From Patescibacteria group bacterium (GTDB taxonomy: Bacteria > Patescibacteriota > Patescibacteriia > UBA2196): DNA of 49,212 bases. The position numbers and the translations under genes were made by a program. Position 1 is the first letter of the stretch; each line of letters opens with the position of its first letter. The notes under the pieces are model-generated. The model was not told the DNA's origin, did no database searches, and saw only the letters and a program-made list of their open reading frames with translations. The stretch is from NCBI GenBank assembly GCA_028748975.1, contig JAQTPI010000002.1, positions 1-49,212 on the forward strand, given 5' to 3'. Positions 11,765 through 47,469 of the stretch are shown here, one piece after another.

Positions 11765-13387
11765 ATGAAAAACACCAAATTCATTTTCATTACCGGCGGA
11801 GTTTGCTCGGGACTGGGCAAGGGGATTGCTTCGGCGTCCATTGGCGCGATTTTAAAAGCCACGGAACACAAAGTTTTTACGGTCAAGATGGATCCCTATT
11901 TAAATCCGGATCCGGGCACGATGAGTCCTTTTCAGCATGGCGAAGTTTTTGTGACCGATGACGGCTATGAGGCGGATTTGGACTTGGGACATTATGAAAG
12001 ATTTATTGACGAACCCTTGAGCCGCCAATCAAATTTAACCACCGGCCAAATTTACCAGCAAATTTTAGCGGAAGAAAGAAAAGGAAATTTTTTGGGCAAA
12101 ACAATTCAGGTGGTGCCGCACGTGACTGATAAAATTAAAGAGTTTATTTTTCGCGCGGCAAAAAAATCACAGACAGACTTTCTTTTAGTGGAAATTGGCG
12201 GAACGGTTGGCGATATTGAAGGTGAACCGTATTTGGAAGCTGGACGGCAAATTCACCACGAGCTTGGCGACGAGCAAGTAATGTTTATTCATTTGACACT
12301 GCTGCCATATTTGAAAGCATCCAATGAGTTGAAAACCAAACCGACACAGATGTCGGTCAAAGAATTACAAAGCCGGGGAATTCATCCGGATATGATTTTG
12401 GCGCGGGCGGATTATAAAATTGGCCGCGAGCTTTTGGATAAGATTGCTATGTTTTGCGATGTGAAACCGGAAGCGGTGATTCCGGCGCCGACGATTGAGA
12501 GTATTTATGAAGTGCCATTGAATTTTGAAAAGGCAAAAATATCTGAAATTATTTTTAAAAAATTCGGAATGCCGATTAGAAAATCAAACCTGAAACCATG
12601 GGAAGAGTTGCTGAAAAAAATTAAAAACGGCGGTAAAAAGACAATTACCATTGCTAAGGTAGGCAAATACACGGCGCATGGTGATGCCTATATTTCGGTG
12701 GATGAGGCGCTGAAAGCGGCCGGATTTGCGAACGATGTAAAAATAAAAATTATAGCAGTGGATTCGGAAAAGTTGGAGGAAAATGACGAAAATGAATGGC
12801 AGGTTTTGAAAAAGGCGGACGGAATTTTGGTGCCGGGCGGATTTGGCAAAAGGGGAGTGGAAGGGAAAATTTTGGCGGCCAAATTCGCGCGAGAAAATAG
12901 TGTTCCATATTTTGGGCTGTGTTTGGGGATGCAGATTTTGACAATTGAATTCGCGCGTTGGTGTTTAAAAACCAAAGACGCCAACAGCGAGGAATTTGAT
13001 GAGAAAACAAAAAATCCGGTGATTCACATTATGAAAGAGCAGAAAAAGAAAATGGCGCAAAGCGATTTTGGCGCCAGTATGCGTCTTGGTGCGTATCCTT
13101 GCGTTTTGGCAAAAAATTCCAAATCCTTCGCGGCGTATGGAGCGCCAAAAGTTTCCGAACGTCATCGCCATCGTTATGAATTTAATAATGATTACCGCGA
13201 GAAATTGGAGAAATGCGGTTTGACCATTGCCGGGGTTTCGCCGGACAAAAAATTGGTGGAAATTGTGGAAATTAAGAATCATCCGTGGATGGTCGGGGTG
13301 CAGTTTCATCCAGAATTCAAATCCCGGCCACTTAAGGCACACCCGCTTTTTAGAGAATTTGTGAGGGCGTGTTTGCGAAGAAAATAG
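11765..13387 (+). CDS. pyrG: CTP synthase
   Basis: FITGGVCSGLGKG, GLCLGMQ, QFHPEF motifs. Confidence 0.98.
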   Translation: MKNTKFIFITGGVCSGLGKGIASASIGAILKATEHKVFTVKMDPYLNPDPGTMSPFQHGEVFVTDDGYEADLDLGHYERFIDEPLSRQSNLTTGQIYQQILAEERKGNFLGKTIQVVPHVTDKIKEFIFRAAKKSQTDFLLVEIGGTVGDIEGEPYLEAGRQIHHELGDEQVMFIHLTLLPYLKASNELKTKPTQMSVKELQSRGIHPDMILARADYKIGRELLDKIAMFCDVKPEAVIPAPTIESIYEVPLNFEKAKISEIIFKKFGMPIRKSNLKPWEELLKKIKNGGKKTITIAKVGKYTAHGDAYISVDEALKAAGFANDVKIKIIAVDSEKLEENDENEWQVLKKADGILVPGGFGKRGVEGKILAAKFARENSVPYFGLCLGMQILTIEFARWCLKTKDANSEEFDEKTKNPVIHIMKEQKKKMAQSDFGASMRLGAYPCVLAKNSKSFAAYGAPKVSERHRHRYEFNNDYREKLEKCGLTIAGVSPDKKLVEIVEIKNHPWMVGVQFHPEFKSRPLKAHPLFREFVRACLRRK

Positions 13388-13415
13388 ATTATATGGTAAA
13401 ATTAAGATAAATAGC

Positions 13416-13453
13416 ACCACTACGTTTTTCACGATCGTGAAAAACGTAGTGGT
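13416..13453. repeat. Perfect 38-bp palindrome, left flank of the Cas2-like gene
   Basis: ACCACTACGTTTTTCACGA|TCGTGAAAAACGTAGTGGT. Confidence 0.95.
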
Positions 13454-13481
13454 AGGGTTTAAAAAATTATTATTTAAAAAC

Positions 13482-14009
13482 ATGATTACTTTCAAAGAAA
13501 GATTAACCGATTTAGTCTTGGAAATAATCTATGAATCTCGCAGGGTTTTGACCACCCATTCTTTAATGGAAGCGGTTTATTTTGATTTAACTGAAAAAAT
13601 AAAAAACGATCAGAAAAGAATAAAATTTGCGAGAAAAGAAAAAGAAAAAATTCAAAAAACCATATATCACTTGAGGAGAATGGGTTGTATAGAAATGAAT
13701 AATAATAAGATAATTAAATTATCAGTAAAAGGGAGAATAAAGATGATTTTATATAAATCTAGAAAAATAAGAAAAAAAGATACAAAGAGTTATTTTTATA
13801 TTTTAATTTTTGATATTCCTGAAAACATGAGAAAAATTAGAGACCTATTCCGGAGGGTTTTGTATAATTTTGGTTCAGATAAACTTCAAAAGAGTGTTTT
13901 CACCATAGAGAGCGAAGAAGCGTTTATTTTGATTAAGGATTTGATAAAAGAAAGTAAAATGAATGATTATGTAAAAATTTTGAAGTGTTCAAAAATTGAG
14001 AAAATTTAA
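13482..14009 (+). CDS. Stand-alone PaaX-type protein: wHTH-like N-terminus plus Cas2-like C-terminal domain
   Basis: ILIFDIPENMRKIRDLFRRVLYNFGSDKLQKSVF matches the Cas2/PaaX-C pattern (FDI..R...R..L..G..Q.SVF); IYHLRRMGCI...LSVKG resembles a wHTH wing. Confidence 0.75.
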   Translation: MITFKERLTDLVLEIIYESRRVLTTHSLMEAVYFDLTEKIKNDQKRIKFARKEKEKIQKTIYHLRRMGCIEMNNNKIIKLSVKGRIKMILYKSRKIRKKDTKSYFYILIFDIPENMRKIRDLFRRVLYNFGSDKLQKSVFTIESEEAFILIKDLIKESKMNDYVKILKCSKIEKI

Positions 14010-14021
14010 TATAATGATACT

Positions 14022-14054
14022 ACTACGTTTTTCACGATCGTGAAAAATGTAGTG
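14022..14054. repeat. Second copy of the palindrome, right flank of the Cas2-like gene
   Basis: ACTACGTTTTTCACGATCGTGAAAAATGTAGTG; one mismatch to 13419-13451. Confidence 0.95.
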
Positions 14055-14076: not shown

Positions 14077-14106
14077 AAAAAACAGCCGGTTTTGGCTGTT
14101 TTTTTT
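14077..14106. terminator. Bidirectional intrinsic terminator
   Basis: AAAAAACAGCC-GGTTTT-GGCTGTTTTTTT between convergent genes. Confidence 0.75.
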
Positions 14107-14120
14107 AATCTTTATTTTTA

Positions 14121-14393
14121 TTAAACAATAGAAATAAATTTGGTCCAGGTGAGCTTGCCGTCAAATTTGATTTTCTTGCGGCGGAAGAAGTGGACCTTGC
14201 CGGCTTTAACGGCGAAAAGAGTGTCATCACCGCCTTTTTTCACGCCAACTCCCGGATGAAATTTGGTGCCGCGCTGGCGCACTAAAATGGCGCCGGATTT
14301 GGCGATTTCACCTTCATATAATTTGACCCCCAAACGTTTGGAAACGGAATCGCGGCCTAAACGGGTGGAGCCCTGTGCTTTACGATGTGCCAT
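14121..14393 (-). CDS. rpmA: 50S ribosomal protein L27
   Basis: [24 protein letters not shown]...[10 protein letters not shown]. Confidence 0.97.
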
Positions 14394-14546: not shown

Positions 14547-14671
14547 ATTTGTGCGTTTGCAAAAAAAGATGTTTTGGAGTATAATATCATTAAAGCATAA
14601 AAACATTAAAACAAAGTGATAAAAATGGCCGTTTAATTAATGTTTTTATGTTTTAATGTTTTAATGTTTTT

Positions 14672-15055
14672 ATGTATTCCAAAATCGTTTTGGAACATTT
14701 CCAAAATCCGCACAATCAAGGGAAAATGGAAGAGGCCGACTGCGTCGGCCAGGTTGGCAATCCCGTGTGCGGGGATATTATGAAATTGTATTTGAAAATC
14801 CGCGTGGAAGATAGAGATAAGCCGGTGGAGGAGCGAGTGATTGAAGATATTAAATTTGAAACGCTTGGTTGCGGGGCGGCGATTGCTTCCACTTCCATGC
14901 TGACAGATTTGGTTAAAGGCAAAACAATCGGCGCGGCACTGAAAGTGACCAAGCAAGAAATAGCTGATGCGTTGGGTGGATTGCCGGCAGTTAAGATTCA
15001 TTGTTCGGTTTTAGCTACTGAAGCTTTGGAGGAAGCGGTAAAACAATTAAAATAA
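14672..15055 (+). CDS. iscU: Fe-S cluster scaffold protein IscU/NifU-N
   Basis: HFQNPHN, GNPVCGD, FETLGCGAAIAS, KIHCSVLA. Confidence 0.93.
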   Translation: MYSKIVLEHFQNPHNQGKMEEADCVGQVGNPVCGDIMKLYLKIRVEDRDKPVEERVIEDIKFETLGCGAAIASTSMLTDLVKGKTIGAALKVTKQEIADALGGLPAVKIHCSVLATEALEEAVKQLK

Positions 15056-15605: not shown

Positions 15606-15735
15606 AATAGAACCTCCCTCCTTTTTATGTGTGTGGAATTATAGATTGTGTTTTAATTATATCATGCCTAAAAATTTGTGTCAAGCGGCGTTGGATTTTC
15701 GCTTAAGACGGAAATGACACACAAAAAAATCGTAT

Positions 15736-15790
15736 AACCACCCCGGTCCGACATAACGTCGGACCACCCCTCCTTGAAAAGGAGGGGATA
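15736..15790. repeat. CCCCTCC-family double-hairpin element
   Basis: AACCACCCC-GGTCCGAC..GTCGGACC-ACCCCTCCTT-GAA-AAGGAGGGGATA. Confidence 0.85.
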
Positions 15791-15856: not shown

Positions 15857-17047
15857 ATGAAACGAATATATTTTGACCACGCGGCGACGACGCCGGTTGA
15901 TAAAAAAGTAATGAAGGCGATGAAGCCGTATTTTTGCGATGTCTTTGGCAACCCGTCTTCACTCCATTCTTTTGGCCAAGAAGCGATGAAAGCAGTGGAC
16001 GAAGCGCGCAACAAGGTTGCTAAGTTTTTGAATTGCGACCGGGAAGAAGTAATTTTTACCAGCGGAGCGACCGAGGCAAATAACCTTGCAATACGAGGGG
16101 TACTGAAATCAGAAATTAGAAATCAGAAATCAGGAACAGACAATAAACTACATGTTATAACTACAGCGTTTGAACATCCGGCGGTTTTAGAAACGGTGAA
16201 AGATTTGGAAAAATCTGGTTTAATCGAAGCGAGCTATGTGATGCCGGGCGCTGATGGAATAGTGAAAACTGAAGATATTGAGAAAGAAATCAGAGATAAC
16301 ACAATTTTAGTTTCGGTGATGTATGTGAATAATGAAATTGGAACGATTCAGCCAATTAAAGAAATTAGCGAAGTTATCAAAAGAATGAATGAGGGCCGGC
16401 CGAATAAAATTTTATTTCACATCGACGCGGTGCAAGCGGCACTTTATTGCGAGATGAAAGTTGGGGAATTGGGCGTGGATTTGCTTGCCATGTCCGGACA
16501 TAAAATTTACGGGCCGAAAGGCATTGGCGTTTTGTATGTTAAAAAATCAGTAAAATTAAAACCAATCCAAACTGGCGGGCACCACGAGTTTGGACTTCGC
16601 GCGGGAACTTTGAATACGCCGTTAATTGCTGGTATGGGTCGGGCAGTAGAATTAATTAAAAAAAGAAACACCAAGAAAGTGGCGGAATCGCGCGATTATC
16701 TTTGGACTAAATTGCAAAGAAATATTTCCGGAATTAAATTGAATGGCGAGATGGTGCGCCGAGTGCCCAGTAATTTGAATGTCAGTATTTTGGGAGTGGA
16801 AGGCGAGGCACTTTTGCTTGGACTGGATATGGAAGGCATTGCCATTTCCACCGGTTCGGCCTGTTCTTCGGGGTCCTTGGAGCCATCACATGTTTTGATG
16901 GCGATTGGTTTAAGCCATGAGGAAGCGCACGGCAGTTTGCGGATTACTTTGGGCGAAGAAAACAATGAAAGCGAATGCGATGAATTGATAAAAAAATTAA
17001 CGCCCTTGGTGGAGCGTTTTAGGCAAATGGCGCCGAAAACAGAATGA
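15857..17047 (+). CDS. iscS: Cysteine desulfurase (IscS/NifS group I)
   Basis: YFDHAATTP, SGHKIYGPKG (PLP Lys), STGSACSSGS. Confidence 0.95.
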   Translation: MKRIYFDHAATTPVDKKVMKAMKPYFCDVFGNPSSLHSFGQEAMKAVDEARNKVAKFLNCDREEVIFTSGATEANNLAIRGVLKSEIRNQKSGTDNKLHVITTAFEHPAVLETVKDLEKSGLIEASYVMPGADGIVKTEDIEKEIRDNTILVSVMYVNNEIGTIQPIKEISEVIKRMNEGRPNKILFHIDAVQAALYCEMKVGELGVDLLAMSGHKIYGPKGIGVLYVKKSVKLKPIQTGGHHEFGLRAGTLNTPLIAGMGRAVELIKKRNTKKVAESRDYLWTKLQRNISGIKLNGEMVRRVPSNLNVSILGVEGEALLLGLDMEGIAISTGSACSSGSLEPSHVLMAIGLSHEEAHGSLRITLGEENNESECDELIKKLTPLVERFRQMAPKTE

Positions 17048-17107: not shown

Positions 17108-17884
17108 CTAGGCGCTAAGTAACTGTTTAAATTCTTCTTCATACATGTCGGCCAATTCGGAAGAGATTTCAGGCAGGGCGTTGGATTTTTCGGCAACCCA
17201 AACCATTTGTTGGTCGGTTTTAGAAAATATTTTTGGATAATCCTGGAGCAGAGCGCCAAAGCCCGCTCCTTTTTTTATTTGATTGGCCATGTCAAAAAGT
17301 GTTTGGCGATAGGCGCGATTTTTTACGGCTCTGGCAGTAATGTTTAGGGCGAACACTTGAGGAACACCCATTTTTAAGAGGCAAGAGAAAACGCGCCAAA
17401 AGCGGGCGGAATTTTCTTTTTGGGCGGCGCGTTTGTTGAAAAAACGAGTAAGCGCGGCGCGGCGTTTGGCCGAATTGAGCCGTTGTTCTTTTTGGAGAAG
17501 TAGAGCCAATTGCTGGAAAGAGTTTTTTAGATTATCATTTTCTTCACCAGCCGCGATAAGGCTGATAAAAATTTCGTCAAAAATTTTTGGATAGTTTTTA
17601 AGTGTGCCAGAAAGAGGTTTGCCGGCGTCTAGGTTTTTAAGGACGTCGGCTATAATTTTTTTAAGGGCGCGAGCGGGGGTTTGTTTTTCCAAAGCCGCGA
17701 GCGCTTTTTTCAAGGGCAGTTCGGCTTTGAGCATGGTGGCAAGGTGTTGAACCAGATAGATTTTTTGCGCCAAAGACACCTGCCCATAAATTTTGGCGGG
17801 AATTGGTTCGCGGCCGCCAACAGTTCTTTTTATGAGCGGCATAATTTCAACGGTCTGTTTTTTGATTTTATTATTGATTGACAT
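17108..17884 (-). CDS. pilC: PilC/GspF family protein, internally shortened
   Basis: Two GspF-like repeats (LATMLKAELPL...AAGEENDNL; LLKMGVP...VAEKSNAL) but no hydrophobic TM stretch. Confidence 0.75.
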   Translation of the reverse strand: MSINNKIKKQTVEIMPLIKRTVGGREPIPAKIYGQVSLAQKIYLVQHLATMLKAELPLKKALAALEKQTPARALKKIIADVLKNLDAGKPLSGTLKNYPKIFDEIFISLIAAGEENDNLKNSFQQLALLLQKEQRLNSAKRRAALTRFFNKRAAQKENSARFWRVFSCLLKMGVPQVFALNITARAVKNRAYRQTLFDMANQIKKGAGFGALLQDYPKIFSKTDQQMVWVAEKSNALPEISSELADMYEEEFKQLLSA

Positions 17885-17971
17885 GAAAAATTAGATATGC
17901 TAAATTATATTTGTTCATTTCACAACCAGGTAAAGGCCTCTGGGCCAAAAGGAGGAATGGTGAAAGAGATT
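17878..17971 (+). promoter_or_regulatory. 94-bp promoter/leader/RBS unit, copy 1
   Basis: TTGACA-17-TG-TAAATT, leader, AGGAGG, ATGGTGAAAGAGATT; near-identical to 18429-18522. Confidence 0.85.
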
Positions 17972-18379
17972 AACTCACGAAATTTTTGGACTTTTGTCTG
18001 GACCATCGCTATTTATAGCGTAGTGATGTATCTGATGAAAAATTATCTCTCGTCGTTTTTTGTGGCGAATATGGCGATAGCTGTAGTAATGACTATAATG
18101 ATTTTTATAGCCGTTTGTCGGAAGGATGGAGTGGGTCTGGCGGCAAGTTGTTCAGCCGTGTTTTCCGCCGCTTTGATGATAAACTACGTTACTTATCGAG
18201 TAGATCCGTTTGTTTTTGTATTTTCAGGGGCAGCATTGGTGTTTATGTTTTTGGCAGCTTTTGAAGCAGCAGAACAACAAAATGTTAAATATGGGAAAGT
18301 TTTTTTATCAATGATGGTTCAGGTGATTGCCAACATTGGCGCTTTTTGGGGTCTTGGATATCTTATTACAAAACCATAA
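17957..18379 (+). CDS. Small polytopic membrane protein (paralog 1)
   Basis: Start placed after AGGAGG (ATG 17957 or GTG 17960); about five hydrophobic segments. Confidence 0.72.
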   Translation: MVKEINSRNFWTFVWTIAIYSVVMYLMKNYLSSFFVANMAIAVVMTIMIFIAVCRKDGVGLAASCSAVFSAALMINYVTYRVDPFVFVFSGAALVFMFLAAFEAAEQQNVKYGKVFLSMMVQVIANIGAFWGLGYLITKP

Positions 18380-18387
18380 TCGGTATC

Positions 18388-18421
18388 TCTCCGTTTCGGT
18401 CAAACCGAACGGGGATTTTTA
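18388..18421 (+). terminator. Intrinsic terminator, copy 1
   Basis: CCGTTTCGGT-CAA-ACCGAACGG + T tract; repeated at 18932. Confidence 0.7.
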
Positions 18422-18428
18422 TTATCGC

Positions 18429-18522
18429 TTGACATGAAAAATCAGGTATGCTAAATTATATTTGTTCATTTCACAACCAGGTAAAGGCCTCTGGGCCAAA
18501 AGGAGGAATGGTGAAAGAGATT
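18429..18522 (+). promoter_or_regulatory. 94-bp promoter/leader/RBS unit, copy 2
   Basis: Direct repeat of 17878-17971. Confidence 0.85.
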
Positions 18523-18921
18523 GTAAGGTGGAATGTGTCGCTTTTTATTCTTGCCACCATCGTCTATGTCGTAGAGTTTTATTTTACAAAAGACATCAGA
18601 GCAGCAACGGTGATGCTCATGTTGCTTTCTTTTTTAGTGGCCTTGGTCTCAGCTCGGGGTAAGGATTGGGTGGGAGCTTCGGCAGCTTCAGCAGCATTTT
18701 TCTCCACCATTCCAATAAGGATAATCATCCCGCTGGTTTCTTTAGAAAATATTTCTTTGCTTTTGGTGGCCGTCTCATCTGTATTTTTGGCGGTCTTATT
18801 CATCTCTGAGATTAAGAAAAAAACAGATATTAAGAGCTGGAAGATTGTTTTACCGATGGTTTTGCAGATCGCTGCCAATCTCGGTGTTTTCTTGAATATC
18901 AAACATTTTATTGGCAAATAA
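18508..18921 (+). CDS. Small polytopic membrane protein (paralog 2)
   Basis: Same leader; weak similarity to paralog 1 (G.G.AAS.A..S; K.....M..Q..AN.G.F). Confidence 0.72.
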   Translation: MVKEIVRWNVSLFILATIVYVVEFYFTKDIRAATVMLMLLSFLVALVSARGKDWVGASAASAAFFSTIPIRIIIPLVSLENISLLLVAVSSVFLAVLFISEIKKKTDIKSWKIVLPMVLQIAANLGVFLNIKHFIGK

Positions 18922-21174: not shown

Positions 21175-21297
21175 CTGTAGCCTCCTTTTTGGTTAAATTG
21201 TTTTTTTTCTTGTAATTTAAGCGTAGCATGAGGCGAAAAGAGAGTCAAGTGGTAATTTTGTTTTTATGCTTTAATGCTAACATGCTAAAATGTTTTT

Positions 21298-21996
21298 ATG
21301 CTTCAACCAAATCCAGGCAAGAATTTAGAAATAGAAGTTAGGGGCAAGGTTTTTTGGCGTTATCCGATTAAGACAAAAATTATTACCAAAGATGATAAAT
21401 TGGAAGATGTAATTAAAGAATATGTGATGCCGCATTATGAAAAAGGGGATATTGTAGCGATGTCAGAAAGAATGGTGGCAGTGACGCAGGGAAGATTAAT
21501 CCATGAAAGTGAAATCAAGGCAAGCGGACTCGCAAAGTTTTTGGTGAAGTTTGTAAAAAAATGGCCCAATGACCCGGGTTTTCGGAATGCCAAAAAAATG
21601 CAGGTGGCGATTAATATGATTGGGGTGCCGCGCATGCTTTTGGCGGCATTTGTTTCGGCCATAACCAAGCCATTTGGCATTCGCGGTTTATTTTATAGAA
21701 TTTGCGGACATGGAGTTTCGGAAATTGATGGCTTTGCGCCGGGCACAATTCCACCGTATGACCAATACGCGGTTTTGGGGCCGGAAAATCCGCGCGGAGT
21801 TTGTAATAATTTGGCAAAAAAATTCGGCGTGGAAGCGGTGATTGTGGATGCCAATAATATTGACGTGGCAATACTCGGCACGAGCGATAATTTATCAATC
21901 ATGCCAGCTGAATTTCGTTTGGCTTTTTTGGATAATCCGATTGGGCAGGGCTTGGAGCAAACGCCGATTTGTATAGTCAGAAGGAAAATTGTATAA
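21298..21996 (+). CDS. F420-0:gamma-glutamyl ligase (CofE)-like domain protein
   Basis: YPIKTKII, AMSERMVAVTQGR, IVDANNI, IGQGLEQTP motifs. Confidence 0.75.
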   Translation: MLQPNPGKNLEIEVRGKVFWRYPIKTKIITKDDKLEDVIKEYVMPHYEKGDIVAMSERMVAVTQGRLIHESEIKASGLAKFLVKFVKKWPNDPGFRNAKKMQVAINMIGVPRMLLAAFVSAITKPFGIRGLFYRICGHGVSEIDGFAPGTIPPYDQYAVLGPENPRGVCNNLAKKFGVEAVIVDANNIDVAILGTSDNLSIMPAEFRLAFLDNPIGQGLEQTPICIVRRKIV

Positions 21997-22423: not shown

Positions 22424-22511
22424 GGTGCCTCCTTTTTAGATTAAATTGTTAGTTTCTTTATTTGTAATTTAAGCGTAGCATGAGGTGAAAAAGGAGTCAA
22501 GTGGAATTTAT

Positions 22512-22737
22512 GCTACTTTCTTTAGACAAAGAAAGTAGCTGAAAGAAACTGGCTCGCGAGCTGCGCGTTAGAGAAAATCAGGCTCGCCGTCGCTAATTTC
22601 CGAACTCGGTCCGATTCTGTCGTCTGCTGACTCCAGAATTGAGACCTCAAACAGGCGGAAATTTTCTTAACTGCGGTCAAGAACCGCTCCTGCTCGCCTT
22701 GATTTTCTAACTAACGCTCCGCTAAGCTCGCGCTGAC
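22512..22737. ncRNA. ~225-nt structured repeat, copy 1 (ncRNA or MITE-like element)
   Basis: Aligns with 36740-36965; nested stems with compensatory changes; transcription not shown. Confidence 0.55.
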
Positions 22738-22800
22738 CAAATCACAATAATCACAAGATGATTATTAGAAATTGAAAATTGAAAATTACAAATTAACTTT

Positions 22801-27127: not shown

Positions 27128-27294
27128 TTTTGTTTTTCTCCTTGTTTGTGATTGTGTGTTTAGTATATCATATTTAAAAATTATTGTCAAGCGATTTTTG
27201 GGGATAATTTTCGGAAAATGCCAAATTTTGGCTAAGATTAGCGGAAATTTAGCCACGAATTAATGCGAATTTAGGGCGAATTTTGCGAATAATT

Positions 27295-27410
27295 ACAACC
27301 CCTCTGTTCCGCTGTTGCGGAACACCTCCCCTTCGAAAGGGGAGGATAGCGACGCGGTTATCCCCTCCTTTCGAAGGAGGGGTGGCCGATAGCAATCGGC
27401 CGGGGTGGTT
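27295..27410. repeat. Pair of oppositely oriented CCCCTCC-family elements
   Basis: 27295-27348 and 27358-27410; similar pair at 42304-42427. Confidence 0.85.
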
Positions 27411-27463
27411 GTAATTTGCGTAAAATCGCGTATAAACTCGCGTGGAATCGCGATTATAAAGAA

Positions 27464-29407
27464 ATGAAAAAAATAAAATTCACAATCAACGGCAAAGAAT
27501 ATTTCGCGAAAAAAGGCGAGACGGTTTTGGATGTGGCTTTGCGCGAAAAAATTGAAATTCCACATTTGTGCAAGCATCCGGATCTGAAAATCAAAGGCAA
27601 CTGCCGGATGTGCTTGGTGGAGGCAGGCGGCCAAATTACCACCGCTTGTTCCACCGAAGTTCTGCCCGATTTGACAATCAAAACCAACACTAAAGAAGTG
27701 GAGCGCGGACGAAAAATAAATTTGGAATTGATTTTTTCCGAACACATTGAAAAATGTCCGACCTGCCTTTACCAAGACAATTGCACAATTTTAAAATATG
27801 CCGCCAAATATAATGTAAAAATCGCGCGGTTTGAAGACCGCAAGAAAAATTTTCCGGTTTGGCAGTTTTCCGATTCCATCCAATTTGATTCTTCCAAATG
27901 TATTGATTGCCGCAATTGCGAAGAGGTTTGCCGCGAAAAACAAGCGTGCAGTTTTTATGAAATTACGGAAGATAAGGGGGAAGACCAAATTATAAAACCC
28001 AAAGGGGAAGCAAACGGAAATCAGAAATTAGAAACCAGAAATCAGGGGGTAGACTTGTTAAAAAACGATCCGAATAAATTTGACTGCACCTATTGCGGGC
28101 AGTGCGTGACGCATTGTCCGGTCGGCGCCATTGCCGGTGTGTCGCACTGGCAGGCAGTGGAAAAATTATTACAAAATAAAAATGGCAAGGTTTTGATAGC
28201 GGAAATCGCGCCGTCAATTCGTGTTTCCATTGGCGAAGAATTCGGACAAGATTACGGCAAAATTATGACGGGACAATTGGCCGCTTCCATGAAAGCGCTT
28301 GGTTTTGATTATGCTTTTGATGTTAATTTGGGCGCGGATTTTACCACCTATGAAGAAGCTAAAGAATTGGTTAAATGGATTACCGAAGATAAACCGCGGC
28401 CGATGTTCACTTCCTGCTGTCCAGCTTGGGTGAAATTCGTGGAATTTTTCTATCCCGAATTTATTTCGCATTTAACTTCTGCCAATTCCCCTCACATGTG
28501 TTCCGGCCCGGTGATTAAAACTTTTTTTGCCGATTATTTGAAAAAAGACCCGCGCGATATTGAAATTGTTTCCATTATGCCTTGTACTTCCAAAAAACAC
28601 GAAATTGGTTTAGAAAAGCATCGAATTGATTTGGGCTGGTGTCTGGAACGGCTGGACTTGCCAAATATCGCCAGTGTTTGCCAAAGCCGCGGCGGATTGG
28701 CGGGGATTAAAGTGCCGGCGGTGGACCATATTTTGACCACGCGCGAATACGCATTTCTTTTGCATAAAAATAAAATTGATTTGCCAAATTTGAAACCAAT
28801 TGATTTGGACAGGCCACTCGGCGTGTCTTCCGGCGCCGGCGCGATTTATGGCGCTTCGGGCGGGGTCATGGAGTCCGCGCTCCGCAGCGCCGATTATTTT
28901 TTCCGTGTTTTAGACGAAACCGGTTCACTTGACCCGGTCATTAAGGGTGAAAATTATAAATTAAAGAAGAAAAGATTTTCTAAAATTTCTCAAAGCCGGA
29001 TTGAATTCAGAGAAGCGCGGGGACAGGCGGGAATTAAAACCGCACGCGTGAAAGTTGGGGGCAGAAAGTTAAATATCGCGGTGGCCAATGGCTTGGGTAA
29101 TGCCAAGAAAATTTTGGAAGATTTGAAAGCCGGCCGCGTCAAATATGATTATGTGGAGGTGATGGCCTGTCCCGGCGGCTGTATTGGCGGCGGAGGACAG
29201 CCGATTCCGACCAACGCGGAAATCAGAGCGAAGCGAGCGGCGGCTTTATATGAAATTGATAAAAATTTGCCAGTGCGCACGGCGCATGAAAATCCCAGTG
29301 TTTTGGAGGTTTATAACAAATATTTCAAAGGCGATGAAGAATTAATTGAGCATGTTTTGCATTCTAAGTTTAAAGTAAAGGAGCGCGAAGGTTACAAAGA
29401 GGTGTAG
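27464..29407 (+). CDS. hydA: [FeFe]-hydrogenase catalytic subunit (group A, M3-type architecture)
   Basis: 2Fe-2S (HLC..GNCRMC..TAC), HxxxCxxCxxxxxC, two 4Fe-4S (CIDCRNC, CTYCGQC), H-cluster motifs TSCCPAW, MPCTSKKHE, EVMACPGGCIGG; start moved to ATG at 27464. Confidence 0.93.
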   Translation: MKKIKFTINGKEYFAKKGETVLDVALREKIEIPHLCKHPDLKIKGNCRMCLVEAGGQITTACSTEVLPDLTIKTNTKEVERGRKINLELIFSEHIEKCPTCLYQDNCTILKYAAKYNVKIARFEDRKKNFPVWQFSDSIQFDSSKCIDCRNCEEVCREKQACSFYEITEDKGEDQIIKPKGEANGNQKLETRNQGVDLLKNDPNKFDCTYCGQCVTHCPVGAIAGVSHWQAVEKLLQNKNGKVLIAEIAPSIRVSIGEEFGQDYGKIMTGQLAASMKALGFDYAFDVNLGADFTTYEEAKELVKWITEDKPRPMFTSCCPAWVKFVEFFYPEFISHLTSANSPHMCSGPVIKTFFADYLKKDPRDIEIVSIMPCTSKKHEIGLEKHRIDLGWCLERLDLPNIASVCQSRGGLAGIKVPAVDHILTTREYAFLLHKNKIDLPNLKPIDLDRPLGVSSGAGAIYGASGGVMESALRSADYFFRVLDETGSLDPVIKGENYKLKKKRFSKISQSRIEFREARGQAGIKTARVKVGGRKLNIAVANGLGNAKKILEDLKAGRVKYDYVEVMACPGGCIGGGGQPIPTNAEIRAKRAAALYEIDKNLPVRTAHENPSVLEVYNKYFKGDEELIEHVLHSKFKVKEREGYKEV

Positions 29408-31169: not shown

Positions 31170-32450
31170 ATGTCAAATCCGAAAATTAAGTCCATAAAAG
31201 CAATTAAAAATCTGAAAAATAAAACAGTGCTTGTGCGCTGTGATTTTGATGTTCCGTTGAAACAACAAACAACAAACAACAAACAACAAACGACAAAAAA
31301 GTCGTCAGTTGTAAGTTGTAAGTTGTCGGTTGCTGACGACTCGCGGCTGCGGGCGGCAACTCCGACGATAAAATATCTTTTATCAAAAGGCGCGAGAGTG
31401 GTTTTGATGGGACACCTTGGCAGACCGGGCGGAGTGGTGAAAAAGGAATTGTCACTTTTGCCGGTGAAAAATCGATTGGGAAAATTACTTGGTGAGAAAA
31501 TAAGTTTTATATCTGACGAGATCCCATCGCTCGCTACGCTCGCTCGGGATGACGGTCGGTTGATAATGTTGGAAAATCTGCGCTTCAATCCCGGCGAGGA
31601 GAAAAATGACCCTAAATTTGCCAAGAAATTGGCGAAATTGGGCGATATTTATGTTAATGAGGCCTTTGCCGTCTCGCACCGAAGCGCGGCTTCGGTGGAC
31701 GCCATAAAAAAGTTTTTGCCATCTTATGCCGGTTTGAATTTGGAGCAGGAAATTTTACATCTGTCGGCGGTTCTAAACAAACCGCAAAAACCAATGGTGG
31801 CCATCATCGGCGGCGCGAAGATTGAAACTAAACTGCCAATGATCAAACAATTTTTGAAATCCGCGGATTACATTTTAATCGGCGGGGGAGTGGCGAATGA
31901 TTTTTTGAAAGCAAGGGGTTATGAGATTTATGGGTCGTTGGTGGACGATGATTATATAAATGAAGCCGGTAAAATATTAAAGAAATCAGAAATCGGAAAT
32001 CAGAAATCAGGAGAAGCAAAGTTAATTTTGCCAATAGATGTTGTTTGGTCTGACAATAAAATCAGGAGTTTATCCGCCGGAGCGTCTAAAGGGACGCCGG
32101 GGAGCGCAGGCGGAAAAACTCCAAAAATTTTGGATATCGGGCCGAAAACAATTTGGTTGTTTAGTGGTATAATTAAGAAAGCCAAGACGATTGTCTGGAA
32201 CGGTCCCATGGGCTATTTTGAAGACAAAAAATTTGCAACGGGCACAGAGAAAATAGCTGAAGTAATTTTGGCTAATAAAAAAGCGCAAAGAATAATTGGT
32301 GGTGGTGAAACAGGGGAAGTAATACAAAAAATAATCAGAAATCAGAAATCAGAAATTAGGAAAAATATTTTTATTTCCATTGGTGGTGGCGCCATGCTAG
32401 AGTATCTTGGAGGTAAAAAATTACCCGGATTGGATAAATTAATTAAATAG
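31170..32450 (+). CDS. pgk: Phosphoglycerate kinase (four repeat-derived segments)
   Basis: VRCDFDVP, HLGRP, LENLRF, GGAKIETK, WNGPMG, GGGET, SIGGGA. Confidence 0.96.
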   Translation: MSNPKIKSIKAIKNLKNKTVLVRCDFDVPLKQQTTNNKQQTTKKSSVVSCKLSVADDSRLRAATPTIKYLLSKGARVVLMGHLGRPGGVVKKELSLLPVKNRLGKLLGEKISFISDEIPSLATLARDDGRLIMLENLRFNPGEEKNDPKFAKKLAKLGDIYVNEAFAVSHRSAASVDAIKKFLPSYAGLNLEQEILHLSAVLNKPQKPMVAIIGGAKIETKLPMIKQFLKSADYILIGGGVANDFLKARGYEIYGSLVDDDYINEAGKILKKSEIGNQKSGEAKLILPIDVVWSDNKIRSLSAGASKGTPGSAGGKTPKILDIGPKTIWLFSGIIKKAKTIVWNGPMGYFEDKKFATGTEKIAEVILANKKAQRIIGGGETGEVIQKIIRNQKSEIRKNIFISIGGGAMLEYLGGKKLPGLDKLIK

Positions 32451-33914: not shown

Positions 33915-34046
33915 TCCGCCGGCTAGCGGAGAAGGATTTCGGAAAAAATCAAATAGAATAATTCAATAATCTAATAAAAATATTTTCGCCGCCAGGCGAT
34001 TTTATTTTTTCTATAAATATCACGATCGTGGTATACGTGGAAAAAT

Positions 34047-34088
34047 AAAATTATACAAAACGTGCGACCGTACGTTTTGTATAATTTT
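34047..34088. repeat. AT-rich inverted repeat with 17-bp arms
   Basis: AAAATTATACAAAACGT-GCGACCGT-ACGTTTTGTATAATTTT. Confidence 0.8.
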
Positions 34089-35000: not shown

Positions 35001-36668
35001 ATGAAGAAAAAAATAAAAGACAAAAATAACCACCCCTCCGCCAGCTGGCGGACCCTCTCCTTAAAAAGGAGAGGAGGAAAAAAGCAGCCGCCGGTAGTTT
35101 TGGCGATTTTGGATGGCTGGGGAATTAATCATGATTACATTGGTAACGCCATTACGCGCGCCAAAACCCCGACCTATAAAATGCTTTTGGAGAAATTTCC
35201 CAATACCAAACTGCGCGCTTCGGGCCGAGCAGTTGGTTTGCCGCCAACTCAAGACGGCAATTCGGAAGCAGGGCACCTGAATTTGGGCGCTGGTCGGGTG
35301 GTGGAGCAGGATACGGTCATTATCTCAAAATTGATTACCGCCGGAACTTTTTTTAAGAATCCGGCACTGAAAGCGAGCATCAAACAGGTGAAAAAGTATA
35401 AAAGCAAGGTCCATCTCATGGGCTTGCTTTCGGGCTGGGAATCCGCCCATACTGACCCTGATCATCTTTTGGCGCTGTTAACTTTTTATCGCCAAGAAGG
35501 AATAAAAAAGGTTTATTTGCATCTTTTCACCGATGGTCGCGATTCTTTTCAATATGGCGCCTTAAAATTTTTAAAACAATTAGAAAATGAATTTAAAGAC
35601 GGGGAGGTGATCGCGAGCGTCACGGGCCGTTATTACGCCATGGACCGGACGAAAAAATGGGAACGCACGGAGGCGGCTTACAATGCGCTGGTTTTGGGCA
35701 AAGGGCAATATTATGCCAAAAGCGCGGAAGAAGCCATCAAACGGGCCTATGACCGCGACGAGACCGATGAATTCATTTTGCCGACCGTGATTGTTAAAGA
35801 TGGCAAATGTGACAAAAGAGGAATTTGCATCAGCGGCGAACCAATCGCCAAAATCGAAGACAATGACGCGGTGGTGTTTTTCAATTTGCGGTCCGACCGT
35901 TCGCGGCAATTGTCCAAAGTTTTTGTCCAAAAGAATTTTAATGATCTGAACCCCGGTGCTTTCAAACGCACCAAGGTTTTGAAGAATTTACTTTTTGTTG
36001 CCATGACTGATTTTGGCCCGGATTTGGACACCATTCTTTCTATTTCACCCTCGCAGGATGTTAAAGAAACTTTGCCCATGGCGCTGACTGGTTTGCGCCA
36101 GCTCTACATCGCGGAGACGGAAAAATATGTTCACGTGACTTATTTCTTTAATGGTGGTTATGCCGAACCGGTTAACAAGGAAGAACGTTTAATGGTATCC
36201 TCGCCCGATGTTTCTTCTTATGATAAAATACCAGAAATGTCAGCTAAAGAAATTACCGATATAATTTTAAATGATTTGAAGAATAATAAATATGATTTCA
36301 TTTTGGTAAATTATGCCAACCCCGATATGGTTGGCCACACCGGCAATTTGGCTGCCGGGATTAAAGCCTGCGGCTTTGTTGATGGTTGTTTAGGGAAACT
36401 TTATGAAGAAATTAAAAATAAAAAAGGGATGCTTTTGGTGGTGGCGGACCATGGCAACGCGGAAGAAATGATTGATGAAAAAACCGGCGAGATTGATACC
36501 CAGCACTCCTCTTATCCGGTGCCGTTTATTATTGCTGATCTGCGTGATGGCGTGAAAAGATATAAATTAAGAAAGGATGGAATTTTGGGCAACGTGGCGC
36601 CGACAATTTTGGATTTGCTAAATAAAAAGAAACCAAAGGAAATGACGGAGGGTTCTTTGGTTTTGTAG
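35001..36668 (+). CDS. gpmI: 2,3-bisphosphoglycerate-independent phosphoglycerate mutase, copy 1
   Basis: ILDGWG, GNSEAGH, FTDGRD, GRYYAMDR, ETEKY, NPDMVGHTG, ADHGNAE. Confidence 0.95.
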   Translation: MKKKIKDKNNHPSASWRTLSLKRRGGKKQPPVVLAILDGWGINHDYIGNAITRAKTPTYKMLLEKFPNTKLRASGRAVGLPPTQDGNSEAGHLNLGAGRVVEQDTVIISKLITAGTFFKNPALKASIKQVKKYKSKVHLMGLLSGWESAHTDPDHLLALLTFYRQEGIKKVYLHLFTDGRDSFQYGALKFLKQLENEFKDGEVIASVTGRYYAMDRTKKWERTEAAYNALVLGKGQYYAKSAEEAIKRAYDRDETDEFILPTVIVKDGKCDKRGICISGEPIAKIEDNDAVVFFNLRSDRSRQLSKVFVQKNFNDLNPGAFKRTKVLKNLLFVAMTDFGPDLDTILSISPSQDVKETLPMALTGLRQLYIAETEKYVHVTYFFNGGYAEPVNKEERLMVSSPDVSSYDKIPEMSAKEITDIILNDLKNNKYDFILVNYANPDMVGHTGNLAAGIKACGFVDGCLGKLYEEIKNKKGMLLVVADHGNAEEMIDEKTGEIDTQHSSYPVPFIIADLRDGVKRYKLRKDGILGNVAPTILDLLNKKKPKEMTEGSLVL

Positions 36669-36739
36669 TTTTTCTTTCGCCACCTTTTTTAGTAAAAGGT
36701 GGCGCCAAAAAGCGCCGCCAGCAAAAAAGTGATTCCTAC

Positions 36740-36965
36740 GCCACTTTCTTTGGACAAAGAAAGTGGCTGAAAGAAACTGGCGAGCGAGCTGCGCGTTAGA
36801 GAAAATCTAAGGCTCGCCCTCGCTAATTTCCGAACTCAGCCGAAGAGAATAATCTGCTGATTATTCTTTCGGCTTCAAACAGGCGGAAATTTTTTCTACT
36901 GCGGTAGAAAACCGCTCCGTCTCGCCTTGATTTTCTTGCTAACGCTCCGCTAGGCTCGCAGCTAC
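36740..36965. ncRNA. ~225-nt structured repeat, copy 2, preceded by an extra P1-like hairpin at 36679-36712
   Basis: Aligns with 22512-22737. Confidence 0.55.
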
Positions 36966-37030
36966 GAAGTCGCAATAATCGCAGTAATTCCTTGAGTTTT
37001 GTTTTAATGCTTTAATGTTAAAATGCTAAT

Positions 37031-38617
37031 ATGAACGACAATTTACAACCTAAATTTCCCAAGCCAGTGGTGCTAGCCATTCTTGACGGCTGGGGCATTG
37101 CGGCGCCGTCGGTGAGCAATGCCATTTCACAGGCCAAGACGCCGAATTTTGATAAATTGACCGCCAATTATTTTTGTACCACCCTTCAGGCCTCGGGTCT
37201 TTCCGTAGGTCTGCCTTATGGTGAAATGGGCAATTCGGAAGTGGGCCATTTGAATTTGGGCGCGGGCAAAATTGTTTATCAAAATTTGCCGCGCATCAAT
37301 CGCGCCATTTTGGACGGTGAGTTTTTTGATAATGTTATTTTTTTGAAAGCTTTGGCGCAAGTTAAAAAACAAAAAAGCAAATTGCATCTTTTGGGACTAA
37401 TTTCCACTGGTGGCGTGCACGCCTCGCTTGACCATCTTTACGCGCTTTTGGAATTGGCTAAAAAACAGAAGATAGAGAAAGTTTTTGTTCATTGTATTTT
37501 GGATGGTCGTGACATGGCCTATAATTCGGGCCAGGGATTGTTGCAAGAATTAAAAAATAAAATGAAAGAAATCGGGGTGGGCGAGATTGCTTCGGTCGTT
37601 GGCCGATTTTATGCCATGGACCGCGACAATCATTTTGAAAGAACGGAAATTGCTTACCGGCTTTTAACCGACGGGTCGGCGGAAAAAAGAACCAAAGATG
37701 TTTTGCAGTCGGTGCAGGAATTTTATGATACTAAAATTTATGATGAAGAAATGAAACCGATTGTGGTGGTTAATGAAAATGATGAGCCAATTGGCAAAGT
37801 TGAGAATAAAGACGCGGTTATTTTTTTTAATTTTCGGCCAGATCGCGCGCGGCAATTGACCAAGGCTTTCGTTTTGCCTGGCTGGGAAAAATTCACCAGG
37901 ATTTATCTGCCGGATCTGTATTTTGTAACCTTGACACAATATGAAAAACAATTGCCTTCGGAAGTGGCTTATCCGCCGGAGACGGTGAAAGAAACCTTGG
38001 CGCAGGTTTTAAGCGAGCAGGGTTTGAAACAGCTGCGCCTGGCAGAAACGGAAAAATACGCGCATGTCACCTATTTTTTTAATGGCGGAAAAGAGGAAAA
38101 ATTGGTTGGCGAGGAAAGAGAAATGATCCCGTCTTTGCGCGTGGAGTCATACGCGGAAAAACCAGAAATGTCGGCCCTCACCATTAAAGAACGGGCGCTG
38201 AAAGAGATAAATGCCAAAAATTTTGATCTGATCACGCTTAATTTTGCCAATCTGGATATGGTGGGGCACACCGGCGATATGAAAGCGACCATTAAGGCGA
38301 CGGAAATAGTTGATAAATGTTTGGGTGAATTGGCAGCGGCAACTTTAGCGGCTGGCGGTATTTTAATTGTTACTGCTGACCATGGCAACGCGGAAGAATT
38401 GATTAATACTAAGACCGGGGAAATTGATAAAGAGCATTCATGCTCGCCGGTGCCGTTTGTTTTAGTTGGTGAAAATTATAAAACACATTCGGAAGGGGGA
38501 GTGATTAATTTGTCGCTGTTGACGCCGGCTGGAGTTTTGGCTGATGTGGCGCCGACGATTTTGAAAATTATGGGATTGGAGCAGCCGAAGGAGATGACAG
38601 GACGGAGTTTGGTGTAA
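37031..38617 (+). CDS. gpmI: 2,3-bisphosphoglycerate-independent phosphoglycerate mutase, copy 2
   Basis: ILDGWG, GNSEVGH, GGVH, LDGRD, ETEKYAHVT, NLDMVGHTG, ADHGNAE. Confidence 0.96.
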   Translation: MNDNLQPKFPKPVVLAILDGWGIAAPSVSNAISQAKTPNFDKLTANYFCTTLQASGLSVGLPYGEMGNSEVGHLNLGAGKIVYQNLPRINRAILDGEFFDNVIFLKALAQVKKQKSKLHLLGLISTGGVHASLDHLYALLELAKKQKIEKVFVHCILDGRDMAYNSGQGLLQELKNKMKEIGVGEIASVVGRFYAMDRDNHFERTEIAYRLLTDGSAEKRTKDVLQSVQEFYDTKIYDEEMKPIVVVNENDEPIGKVENKDAVIFFNFRPDRARQLTKAFVLPGWEKFTRIYLPDLYFVTLTQYEKQLPSEVAYPPETVKETLAQVLSEQGLKQLRLAETEKYAHVTYFFNGGKEEKLVGEEREMIPSLRVESYAEKPEMSALTIKERALKEINAKNFDLITLNFANLDMVGHTGDMKATIKATEIVDKCLGELAAATLAAGGILIVTADHGNAEELINTKTGEIDKEHSCSPVPFVLVGENYKTHSEGGVINLSLLTPAGVLADVAPTILKIMGLEQPKEMTGRSLV

Positions 38618-42175: not shown

Positions 42176-42303
42176 CTTTCACCTCCCCTTATTTTGTTGT
42201 TTTTTGGTCTAAATAAGCCAGATTTGGTTGGTCGTTTGTGGATAAATTTTATTATCTATTTCAATTATAGCATGTTTATTTTTTTGTGTCAAATGTCCGT
42301 TGG

Positions 42304-42427
42304 TTATCCCCTCCTTTCGAAGGAGGGGTGCGAGCCAGCAGGCGAGTGGGGTGGTTGTGGTTTGTATTTTTTTACAACCCCTCCGTTCCGTTGCTACGGA
42401 ACACCTCCCCTTCGAAAGGGGAGGATA
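42304..42427. repeat. Pair of CCCCTCC-family elements
   Basis: 42304-42356 and 42374-42427, near-identical to the 27295-27410 units. Confidence 0.85.
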
Positions 42428-44486: not shown

Positions 44487-44573
44487 ATTTATTTGACACC
44501 TAAATACAGATGTATTAAAATGAATAATAGAATACAATTTAATGCCAACATGTTAAAATGCTAAAAAGTTTTT

Positions 44574-47192: not shown

Positions 47193-47440
47193 CTAGTAAT
47201 AAGTAATAAAAAATAACGAAAATAAGGAAATAGGGATATAAGGAAATAAAGTTATTTTTATTTTATTATTTAATTAGTCACCGTTTTATGGTGGCTTTTT
47301 TTATTTTCCAAAAATACCATTATTTTTGTTATACTATAATGCGTTGATCGTCGCATATGATATAACACTTTTTAGCTTTTTTTCGGTTTTGTATTTTTAT
47401 GTTTTAATGCTTTTATGCTTTAATGTTAAAATGATTTTAT

Positions 47441-47469
47441 TTGACACCAAAAACTATATCTGGTATACT
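47441..47469 (+). promoter_or_regulatory. Sigma70-type promoter upstream of the sigma-like gene
   Basis: TTGACA, 17 bp, TATACT. Confidence 0.6.

Follow-up and report, generated by a model that had tools for sequence, protein, structure and literature searches.

The window analysed here, a stretch of 49,212 nucleotides (nt) of contig JAQTPI010000002.1 from a Patescibacteria group bacterium (assembly GCA_028748975.1), carries between pyrG and rpmA a gene for a 175-amino acid (aa) protein that is bracketed by two long palindromes. The protein joins a predicted winged helix-turn-helix (wHTH) domain to a Cas2-like fold. It belongs to a large family whose genes recurrently have palindromes of the same type at their ends, with arms that differ from paralogue to paralogue. 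The explanation to which we give somewhat more credence than doubt is that of a widespread Patescibacteria module made of a minimal PaaX-type protein and its cognate palindrome, which a dimer of the protein would bind, which would act as auto-operator, and whose copies would be propagated. Full-text literature searches returned no prior description of this gene-palindrome arrangement, nor was any paper mentioning PaaX and Cas2 together found in the literature searched; the family-wide genomic signature appears undescribed.

The features of the locus are collected in Table 1; loci and contigs compared with the window are designated by L numbers. The gene starts 28 nt past the upstream palindrome and ends 12 nt ahead of the downstream one. 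A first-pass annotation, made from the letters of the window, had described this layout, and its coordinates for palindromes, gene and spacings hold to the base. The AT-richness that it ascribed to the 175-aa gene lying between pyrG and the rpmA terminator is equally real, the G+C content of the gene being 23-29% against about 44% in pyrG and 50% in rpmA. The 20-nt core TTTTTCACGATCGTGAAAAA, common to both palindromes, occurs exactly twice in the 49 kb, where 0.04 occurrences are expected, and two copies were obtained in 0 of 100 shuffles. Folded as single-stranded DNA, the upstream copy reaches -18.2 kcal/mol (z = -9.5) and the downstream copy -10.4 kcal/mol (z = -5.4). The first-pass annotation gave the palindromes their exact extent and cut the direct repeat short: it reaches 18 nt further to the left (13398-13451 versus 14001-14054, 81% identity). 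This extension, with its -10-like box ahead of the downstream copy, is not conserved in L002, the closest homologous locus and one in the same genomic position, and is probably not meaningful.

Profile and structure comparisons bear out the wHTH-like N-terminus and the Cas2/PaaX motif recognised in the first-pass annotation. The PaaX_M model (PF20803, a Cas2-like central domain) matches residues 106-172 with an expectation value (E) of 4e-9 and 36.8 bits versus a cut-off of 24, and relatives of the protein give E values of 1e-8 to 4e-26. The NCBIfam model TIGR01573 (cas2) gives 25.4 bits, barely over its curated cut-off of 24.5, and the PaaX_M score exceeds those obtained with Cas2 models. Among the defence-system models of PADLOC only Cas2 ones match the window protein, and no Pfam HTH model does. 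Its domain plan comprises the wHTH (about residues 4-80), a linker helix (82-95) and the Cas2-fold domain (105-169). In an AlphaFold2 model computed with 70 family sequences (predicted local distance difference test, pLDDT, 89) helices 4-19, 25-32 and 34-66 and a β-hairpin at 70-80 form a winged-helix topology, and a β-α-β-β-α-β domain follows the linker helix; pLDDT is above 90 from residue 40 and just 60-67 in the first two helices. The wing motif L-T/S-x-K-G is conserved in the family. The best Foldseek matches are Cas2 chains of Cas1-Cas2 integrases (probability 1.0, template-modelling score on the target about 0.5-0.6), followed by VapD and, with the first model, also by PaaX and Rv0674.

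Residues F110, D111, R120, R124, Q136 and S138 are invariant across 70 diverse members, and I112, P113 and E114 nearly so. The conserved block Q136-K137-S138-V139-F140 completes the motif FDIPE…QKSVF, which is the Cas2 signature in a motif alignment to SSO1404. The family retains FDIPE and QKSVF/W, both of which have been lost by Escherichia coli PaaX and Mycobacterium tuberculosis Rv0674, as seen when L024 is aligned to them. This family member has PaaX_M together with PaaX_C (PF08223), aligns to E. coli PaaX (8a39) at E 1e-7 and is bracketed likewise. PaaX_C is missing from the window protein, whose end at residue 175 directly follows the Cas2-like domain. Since the Cas2 signature is kept alongside a PaaX_M domain and L024 has PaaX_C, the family lies, as far as sequence motifs tell, between Cas2 and PaaX, and minimal PaaX-type protein retaining Cas2 motifs would be a better name than Cas2. 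Ratios of non-synonymous to synonymous substitution rates (dN/dS) of 0.135 for the window versus L002 and 0.147 for L003 versus L006 indicate that the gene is under purifying selection. Tyrosine Y128 was considered as a conserved nucleophile and rejected, as it is not conserved in the wider family. The first-pass annotation had seen neither cas1 nor an array of clustered regularly interspaced short palindromic repeats (CRISPR) nearby; consistent with this, no CRISPR-like array was found in the 49-kb window and no Cas1 domain among the 27 open reading frames (ORFs) scanned against Pfam. The gene is the sole Cas2-like ORF of the window, and no paa genes were seen among the ORFs annotated by the Pfam scan.

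An exhaustive profile search found 4,705 clusters (50% identity) at E ≤ 1e-3, 1,716 of them at E ≤ 1e-10; the 150 best-scoring clusters are mostly 140-200 aa long. There are several family copies per genome, and several genomes hold 3-5 paralogues. The first four homologues lie at other loci, after gatB and after secY-adk-map, and one more at pyrG-rpmA-nifU. All these first homologues are bracketed by paired palindromes of 37-42 nt with the core (C)ACGATCG and different arms. Homologues were gathered irrespective of their flanks, and a scan of one genome per species gave 41 further loci, which are mostly labelled as Patescibacteria or its candidate phyla; the label 'uncultured Gammaproteobacteria' of some is taken to be mislabelling.

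In 46 non-redundant loci (344 kb) all CGRYCG hexamers were scored by the number of complementary flank pairs out of 20. Flank complementarity of the 479 sites has two modes, one at 5, the background, and another at 12-20. Seventy-eight sites have at least 12 pairs, and 74 of these (a count that takes in the reassigned site L046:3768) are located where the Cas2-like gene starts or stops, in regions that make up 9% of the DNA. The first-pass annotation had proposed to look for flanking palindromes in homologues: 44 of the 46 loci have at least one strong site at the gene ends, 27 have them at both ends, and 33 do at a laxer threshold. Counted by end, an upstream counterpart exists in 33/46 loci and one right past the stop codon in 38/46. 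The two cores are mostly 525-750 nt apart, the downstream one typically lies 10-30 nt beyond the stop, and the only centres are CGATCG, CGGCCG or CGGTCG/CGACCG. An independent palindrome scan places 45 of 57 long palindromes at most 200 nt from the gene. Each locus has exactly one family member, which is AT-richer than its flanks in 45 of the 46 (mean difference 7.8 points). The genes listed or annotated beside the homologous loci are housekeeping ones, and some family members are labelled 'Cas2' by some sources.

The arms of the palindromes distinguish paralogues. In one metagenome-assembled genome (MAG) five paralogues share the core, each with an arm sequence of its own. L002, whose protein is 77% identical to that of the window, keeps the inner 22 bp unchanged, and its outer arms differ compensatorily on both sides (ACCACTACG/CGTAGTGGT in the window versus TTCCACTG/CAGTGGAA in L002). 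Half-sites have a purine at position -8 in 87% of cases and never C, A/T at positions -7 and -6 in 91-97%, T at -5 in 66% and A at -1 in 60%. Arm distance follows protein distance (Mantel r 0.22, p 0.0005), and in partial correlations the N-terminal half (p 0.005) does slightly better than the C-terminal one (p 0.035). The covariation of palindrome and protein anticipated in the first-pass annotation is thus found as paralogue-specific arms that change compensatorily, with a weak Mantel correlation. Together with the recurrent layout, these arms support its proposal of a palindrome-gene-palindrome unit whose protein may act on its own flanks, through autoregulation or REPtron-like mobility. 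Mismatches are concentrated at positions 1-5 beside the core and are rare at positions 10-14. GTAG/CGTC-like tags, as found in repetitive extragenic palindromic sequences (REPs), are present in just 16 of 174 half-sites. The inner palindrome at 13422-13447 reads GTTTTTCAC-GATC-GTGAAAAAC and resembles, split by GATC, the parS consensus (TGTTTCAC/GTGAAACA); other family palindromes are unlike parS. The L012 cassette adjoins a ParA-like gene.

Palindromes of the family type are found also away from the gene. In the window, an orphan copy and a decayed one (Table 1) occupy the gap where eno and a 163-aa ORF without Pfam match converge. This is the slot between eno and a gene of cofactor-independent phosphoglycerate mutase (iPGM), where the relative L042 has a full cassette. 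No Cas2-like gene stands beside the orphan at 34047-34088. The decayed copy, whose right arm resembles the L007 palindrome, would be a relic at best, because its fold energy is not above that of shuffles. Family-type palindromes that differ from each other are paired 40-110 bp apart, with no gene between them, also in L019 (430-475 and 518-561) and L050 (10335 and 10443), and the window shows the same gene-less pairing at 34005-34088. In L012 a third copy of the palindrome of that locus, likewise perfect, lies 3.6 kb from the gene (L012:135), and a further orphan is located at L013:5496.

A metagenome scan with the inner palindrome of the window returned six contigs, one of which (L049) has a bracketed family gene. 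Four of the other five have lone copies, placed in an intact murC (L048), in murD and a 453-aa ORF (L053), in a 275-aa ORF (L051) and between genes (L050); the match in L052 sits at the contig end, which makes its placement impossible. The copies inside ORFs are in frame and are read in two frames, as …TFFTIVKNV… or …HVFHDREK…. Those of L053 share both their arms and their source metagenome with the L049 copies. A homologue at 93% identity also has the murC copy, and those at 65% lack it. Clean proof that it is an insertion was sought and failed: its boundaries are undefinable because it lies in a loop of variable length. Identical sequences of 30-38 bp in unrelated genes cannot evolve in place, therefore something copies them. 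The murC orphan (L048 2103-2148) also combines a left arm, ATGACACG, of one L049 flank type with a right arm, TGTGGTAT, of the other (flanks at 2073-2118 and 2636-2681), the hybrid expected from a crossover between them; with just three distinguishing positions and contigs from different samples, this may be chance.

The cassettes combine stability and turnover. Orthologue pairs with common neighbours in two MAGs are L007-L008 (after gatB) and L015-L017 (after eno), each with several shared neighbours, and L009-L010, with one; the neighbour proteins are only about 50-72% identical. As orthologues keep their loci over this deep divergence, mobility of the whole cassette would be rare, if any. 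L057 is about as close to the window as L002 (nucleotide identity 83% in pyrG and 92% in rpmA; L27 protein 96%). The slot between its pyrG and rpmA is filled by an unrelated non-coding stretch of 680 bp and a 163-aa gene, with no palindrome. Similarity resumes past the slot, at position 14111 of the window; the terminator at 14077-14104 is kept in L002. L059 keeps the synteny, with a NADAR-domain gene in the slot and no palindrome, and L058 and L060 have other neighbours. Fixation of the gene at this place, which the first-pass annotation had named as a point that would refute it, is not seen, L057 having unrelated DNA there. The empty pyrG-rpmA site retaining one palindrome for which that annotation proposed to look was not found, L057 and L059 being syntenic but palindrome-free. 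In relatives, cassettes follow eno, fpg and secDF, places that are free of them in the window. The L001 protein, encoded at the gatB locus, is closer to the pyrG-locus protein of the window (58%) and to the map-locus L006 (53%) than to the two other gatB-locus proteins (44%). A phage origin was considered and rejected: no family member was found in 2.9 million IMG/VR viral contigs, and no copy of the palindrome core in the IMG/VR contigs. The 680 bp of L057 (1998-2678) are GC-rich, have no Rfam match and may be an unrecognised structured RNA. Kinship of the L057 163-aa gene with the window's 163-aa ORF beside the orphans was also considered and discarded, the two being unrelated.

We privilege the view that these elements form a protein-repeat partnership with autoregulation. 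The protein would dimerise through its Cas2-fold domain, like the homologous domain of PaaX, and the dimer would sit on the palindrome as double-stranded DNA, its Cas2-like part over the CGRYCG centre. The two winged helices could then read the conserved half-site stretch from -10 to -5 as well as the outer arms, which are specific to each paralogue. Transcription is predicted to start near 13409-13410, which would place the upstream palindrome at about +7 to +44, just past the extended -10 promoter. A bound dimer would thus block transcription and shut off its own gene. The TGnTAAAAT block of this promoter and the AAGATA that follows are kept in L002, where the outer palindrome arms are not, and in some other members, such as L042, the start codon lies inside the right palindrome arm. 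The copy past the stop codon could serve as a further binding site, either to form a repression loop around the gene or as a roadblock to read-through. Palindromes would also be copied elsewhere, between genes and in frame inside genes, and it would be most economical to suppose that the cognate protein maintains them and now and then propagates them. The pair would then be a vertically inherited partnership organised like that of REPINs and REP-associated tyrosine transposases (RAYTs).

Several points weigh against this view. What the sequences show is the architecture and its conservation across the family, the compensatory arm changes, the purifying selection and the orphan copies with their positions; dimerisation, binding, autorepression and any catalysis are deduced. 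The promoter is a consensus match conserved in just one other sequence. A simple auto-operator needs no post-stop copy in nearly every locus, copies inside essential genes are unlike operators, and orphans, at about 1 per 75 kb of the DNA sampled, are far scarcer than typical REPs. The Mantel signal is weak and inseparable from shared ancestry. Some perfect palindromes measure 44-54 bp, which is probably more than a winged-helix dimer would cover. Both L008 and L041 have copies that differ from each other at 13-20 of 42 positions, each still being a perfect or near-perfect palindrome (0-3 arm mismatches), and in L008 the difference is apparently an indel mirrored in both arms. Because such copies diverge and yet stay palindromes, which plain duplex binding leaves unexplained, the comparison suggests that symmetry itself is selected or regenerated, for instance via a hairpin or cruciform.

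Divergence of this kind also speaks for a REPIN-RAYT-like mobilisation, in which the Cas2-fold domain would be an active nuclease that nicks or cuts CGRYCG in an extruded hairpin or cruciform, copying or moving the 30-50-bp palindromes and rarely the cassette, with binding and autoregulation being secondary. We hold this to be somewhat unlikely; it would extend the partnership with autoregulation and does not exclude it. The bracketed gene, the own repeat of each paralogue and the vertical inheritance are properties known from the RAYT/REPIN literature. Orphans are in frame in intact murC, murD and other ORFs, in two frames, and the mismatches stand beside the core, where a hairpin loop would tolerate them. 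The motifs FDIPE and QKSVF/W, absent from E. coli PaaX and Rv0674, are retained, the gene is AT-richer than its flanks, and the L001 protein at gatB has its closer relatives at the pyrG and map loci. Set against these are the persistence of orthologues at their loci, the rarity of orphans, the absence of the family from the viral contigs searched and the lack of any joining enzyme (Cas1, HUH or recombinase) linked to the module. Neither a target-site duplication nor a defined insertion boundary was found, the variable loop of murC does not allow a clean insertion to be demonstrated, and the conserved Asp may be structural. Within the partnership itself, the Cas2-fold domain could be catalytic, the winged helices placing the dimer on a hairpin or cruciform for cutting at CGRYCG, and 30-50-bp palindromes, occasionally the cassette, would thereby be regenerated, copied or moved without Cas1 or HUH enzymes. 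The retained Cas2 motifs, the regenerated symmetry and the copies in ORFs argue for such a role; the stable loci and the absent joining enzyme argue against it, and we rate it as unlikely.

An ordinary autoregulated PaaX-family repressor, whose downstream copy and orphans would be extra operators or chance by-products with nothing mobile, agrees with the PaaX_M domain, with the alignment of L024 (PaaX_M and PaaX_C) to E. coli PaaX, with a palindromic site beside a conserved promoter, with stable loci and with purifying selection. It does not account for identical 30-38-bp sequences in unrelated ORFs, which cannot arise in place, nor for a nearly universal copy at the stop codon, for palindromes of up to 54 bp, for a slot that varies among close relatives or for window orphans situated between convergent gene ends and not at a promoter; no paa genes are nearby either, and we judge this explanation improbable. 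Two other models fit worse than these. The palindromes could be core sites of a host tyrosine recombinase, with two arms and a 6-bp crossover region as in dif modules, the Cas2-like gene being cargo or accessory. The geometry of arms and 6-bp centre fits, the strongly asymmetric sites are in direct orientation (L003, L006, L016, L028, L032), a XerC-like gene lies 380 nt from the L050 orphan, and the L048 orphan joins the arm types of both L049 flanks as a crossover product would. This is very improbable when the cargo is always one protein family (74/78 sites), the arms vary per paralogue within a genome and would be unreadable by a single host recombinase, some pairs are inverted (L001, L017), and the unlike upstream and downstream copies of L008 and L041 are each perfect or near-perfect palindromes and not hybrids. 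Finally, the palindromes could work in RNA, as messenger hairpins that stabilise the 5' end and serve for termination or processing at the 3' end, perhaps being recognised by an RNase of Cas2 type. Transcription would make the upstream copy of the window a 5' leader, and the downstream copy, followed by ATTTTTAT and with its single mismatch G·T on the sense strand, was flagged as terminator-like; it has this sequence in place of the T-run of an intrinsic terminator. Family-wide, sense-strand mismatches show no wobble bias (28 G·T versus 25 A·C) and a T-run (at least 5 T in the next 8 nt) follows only 19% of downstream copies. Cores are both CGGTCG and CGACCG on the sense strand, and the two copies have direct orientation in 13 loci and inverted orientation in 8, the two orientations being indistinguishable in a further 12. 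Since orientation is free, G·T bias is absent and T-runs are scarce, the palindromes would act on DNA; a function as RNA hairpin was rejected for the family, and the RNA-level model is scarcely credible.

Table 1. Positions of the cassette features and of the orphan palindromes in the window.
Feature	Position	Strand	Sequence and remarks
Promoter-like site	13373-13402	+	-35 TTGCGA, 18-nt spacer, extended -10 TGGTAAAAT (13394-13402); consensus scan
Upstream palindrome	13416-13453		Perfect, 38 bp, zero loop; ACCACTACGTTTTTCACGATCGTGAAAAACGTAGTGGT; core CGATCG at 13432-13437; candidate cognate site and auto-operator
Gene for minimal PaaX-type protein, 175 aa	13482-14009	+	ATG at 13482, TAA at 14007-14009
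Downstream palindrome	14022-14053		32 bp, one G·T mismatch; core CGATCG at 14035-14040; followed by ATTTTTAT
Bidirectional intrinsic terminator common to rpmA	14077-14104		Right edge of insert-like segment; outside the repeat system
Decayed orphan palindrome	34005-34046		Centre CACGATCGTG at 34021-34030; 13/20 flank pairs
Orphan palindrome	34047-34088		AAAATTATACAAAACGTG-CGACCG-TACGTTTTGTATAATTTT; 17/20 flank pairs; -15 kcal/mol, z -7.4; arms differ from the 13416 type

The neighbours of the cassette code for CTP synthase (pyrG, 11765-13387), ribosomal protein L27 (rpmA, 14121-14393, minus strand) and NifU, and the wider surroundings include iscS and ribosomal and glycolytic genes. No tRNAs and no Rfam families were found in the window. 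The divergent rpmA-nifU intergenic region has a 20-nt inverted repeat (14412-14431/14469-14488, 95% complementary, 37 nt apart) that may be an operator. Arrays of the 8-nt units TTAATGYT/TAAAATGY at 14638-14675, 21256-21301, 36997-37034, 44532-44569 and 47381-47442 lie directly before start codons, or at most about 170 nt upstream of them (nifU, iPGM, secD and others), and have the appearance of a leader or promoter motif particular to the lineage. At 27293-27418 and, in opposite arrangement, at 42302-42427 there is a GC-rich element of about 126 bp, with a half copy at 15735-15790. Its two mutually inverted arms, each with a hairpin, give it the look of a REPIN or of a miniature inverted-repeat transposable element, and it has no relation to the CGRYCG palindromes. 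Coding regions contain runs of the heptamer GAAATCA, which add short repeated peptides to a cysteine desulfurase-like gene, a hydrogenase gene and, twice, pgk (16087-16136, 27999-28048, 31964-32013 and 32306-32355). A repeat of about 250 bp (83-92% identity; 22509-22755 and 36737-36983) precedes both a DUF4012 gene and, unrelated to it, the second iPGM gene, and a 106-nt repeat with 96% identity (17866-17971 and 18417-18522) extends across the tandem paralogous ORFs 17897-18379 and 18448-18921. The iPGM genes themselves are tandem paralogues (35001-36668 and 37031-38617) downstream of pgk and eno.

With this work a family of about 4,700 clusters (50% identity), present in several copies per genome in regulator-poor bacteria, gains a hypothesis on its role, and 'Cas2' calls of the family in genomes of the candidate phyla radiation are not to be taken as CRISPR remnants. 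The matched pairs of a protein and a 38-bp site, with diversified specificity, form a natural series on DNA reading by winged helices and Cas2-like dimers. Should the catalytic reading be true, the family would be a new class of DNA-mobilising enzyme and a living Cas2-type protein tied to palindromic repeats outside CRISPR, with a bearing on the origin of the Cas2 and repeats of CRISPR adaptation, and of PaaX repressors.

PaaX, which controls phenylacetate (paa) genes in response to aryl-CoA, is a dimer that binds palindromic operators. Like the PaaX repressors of E. coli (8a39) and M. tuberculosis (Rv0674, 3kfw), the window protein has an N-terminal winged helix followed by a Cas2-like PaaX_M domain. 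It differs from them in being devoid of the C-terminal ligand domain, in keeping the Cas2 motifs, in having no paa genes nearby, in having as sites palindromes of 30-54 bp that flank its own gene, and in its several paralogues per genome. With Cas2 (SSO1404 and the chains of Cas1-Cas2) and VapD toxins it shares the ferredoxin-like β-α-β-β-α-β fold, and with Cas2 also the Asp motif of β1 and the Q-x-SVF motif. Unlike Cas2, it is fused to a winged helix, has about twice the size and scores higher with PaaX_M; neither a cas1, looked for in the 27 ORFs scanned, nor a CRISPR array, looked for throughout the window, accompanies it. The dif modules of Acinetobacter plasmids, in which XerC/XerD sites bracket genes, resemble the cassette in having a single gene between two short sites with inverted arms around a 6-bp centre, and differ in that varied cargo, one host recombinase and conserved arms stand against the single-family cargo and paralogue-specific arms found here. 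Rickettsia palindromic elements are 100-150 bp long. Like these elements, and like the intragenic REPs reported in PMC3733652, the copies in murC and the other ORFs are short palindromic repeats in frame in intact coding genes, but those other elements have no linked, bracketed cognate gene of this kind. The closest parallel in organisation is that with REPIN-RAYT systems: according to PMC3116915, PMC3733652 and 10.1101/2022.05.22.493013, they likewise have a gene bracketed by cognate palindromic repeats, an own repeat for each paralogue, vertical and long-lived inheritance, and repeat copies elsewhere, also inside genes. Unlike RAYTs, which are HUH/Y1 transposases of the IS200/IS605 family, the window protein matches only PaaX_M and Cas2 models and has Cas2 and VapD as its structural neighbours. 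Its repeats are zero-loop full palindromes with a CGRYCG centre and not tagged stem-loops, and its orphans are few and not hundreds. By this analogy, the PaaX-type proteins and their palindromes may represent a second, independent case of the persistent protein-repeat partnership embodied by REPINs and RAYTs.

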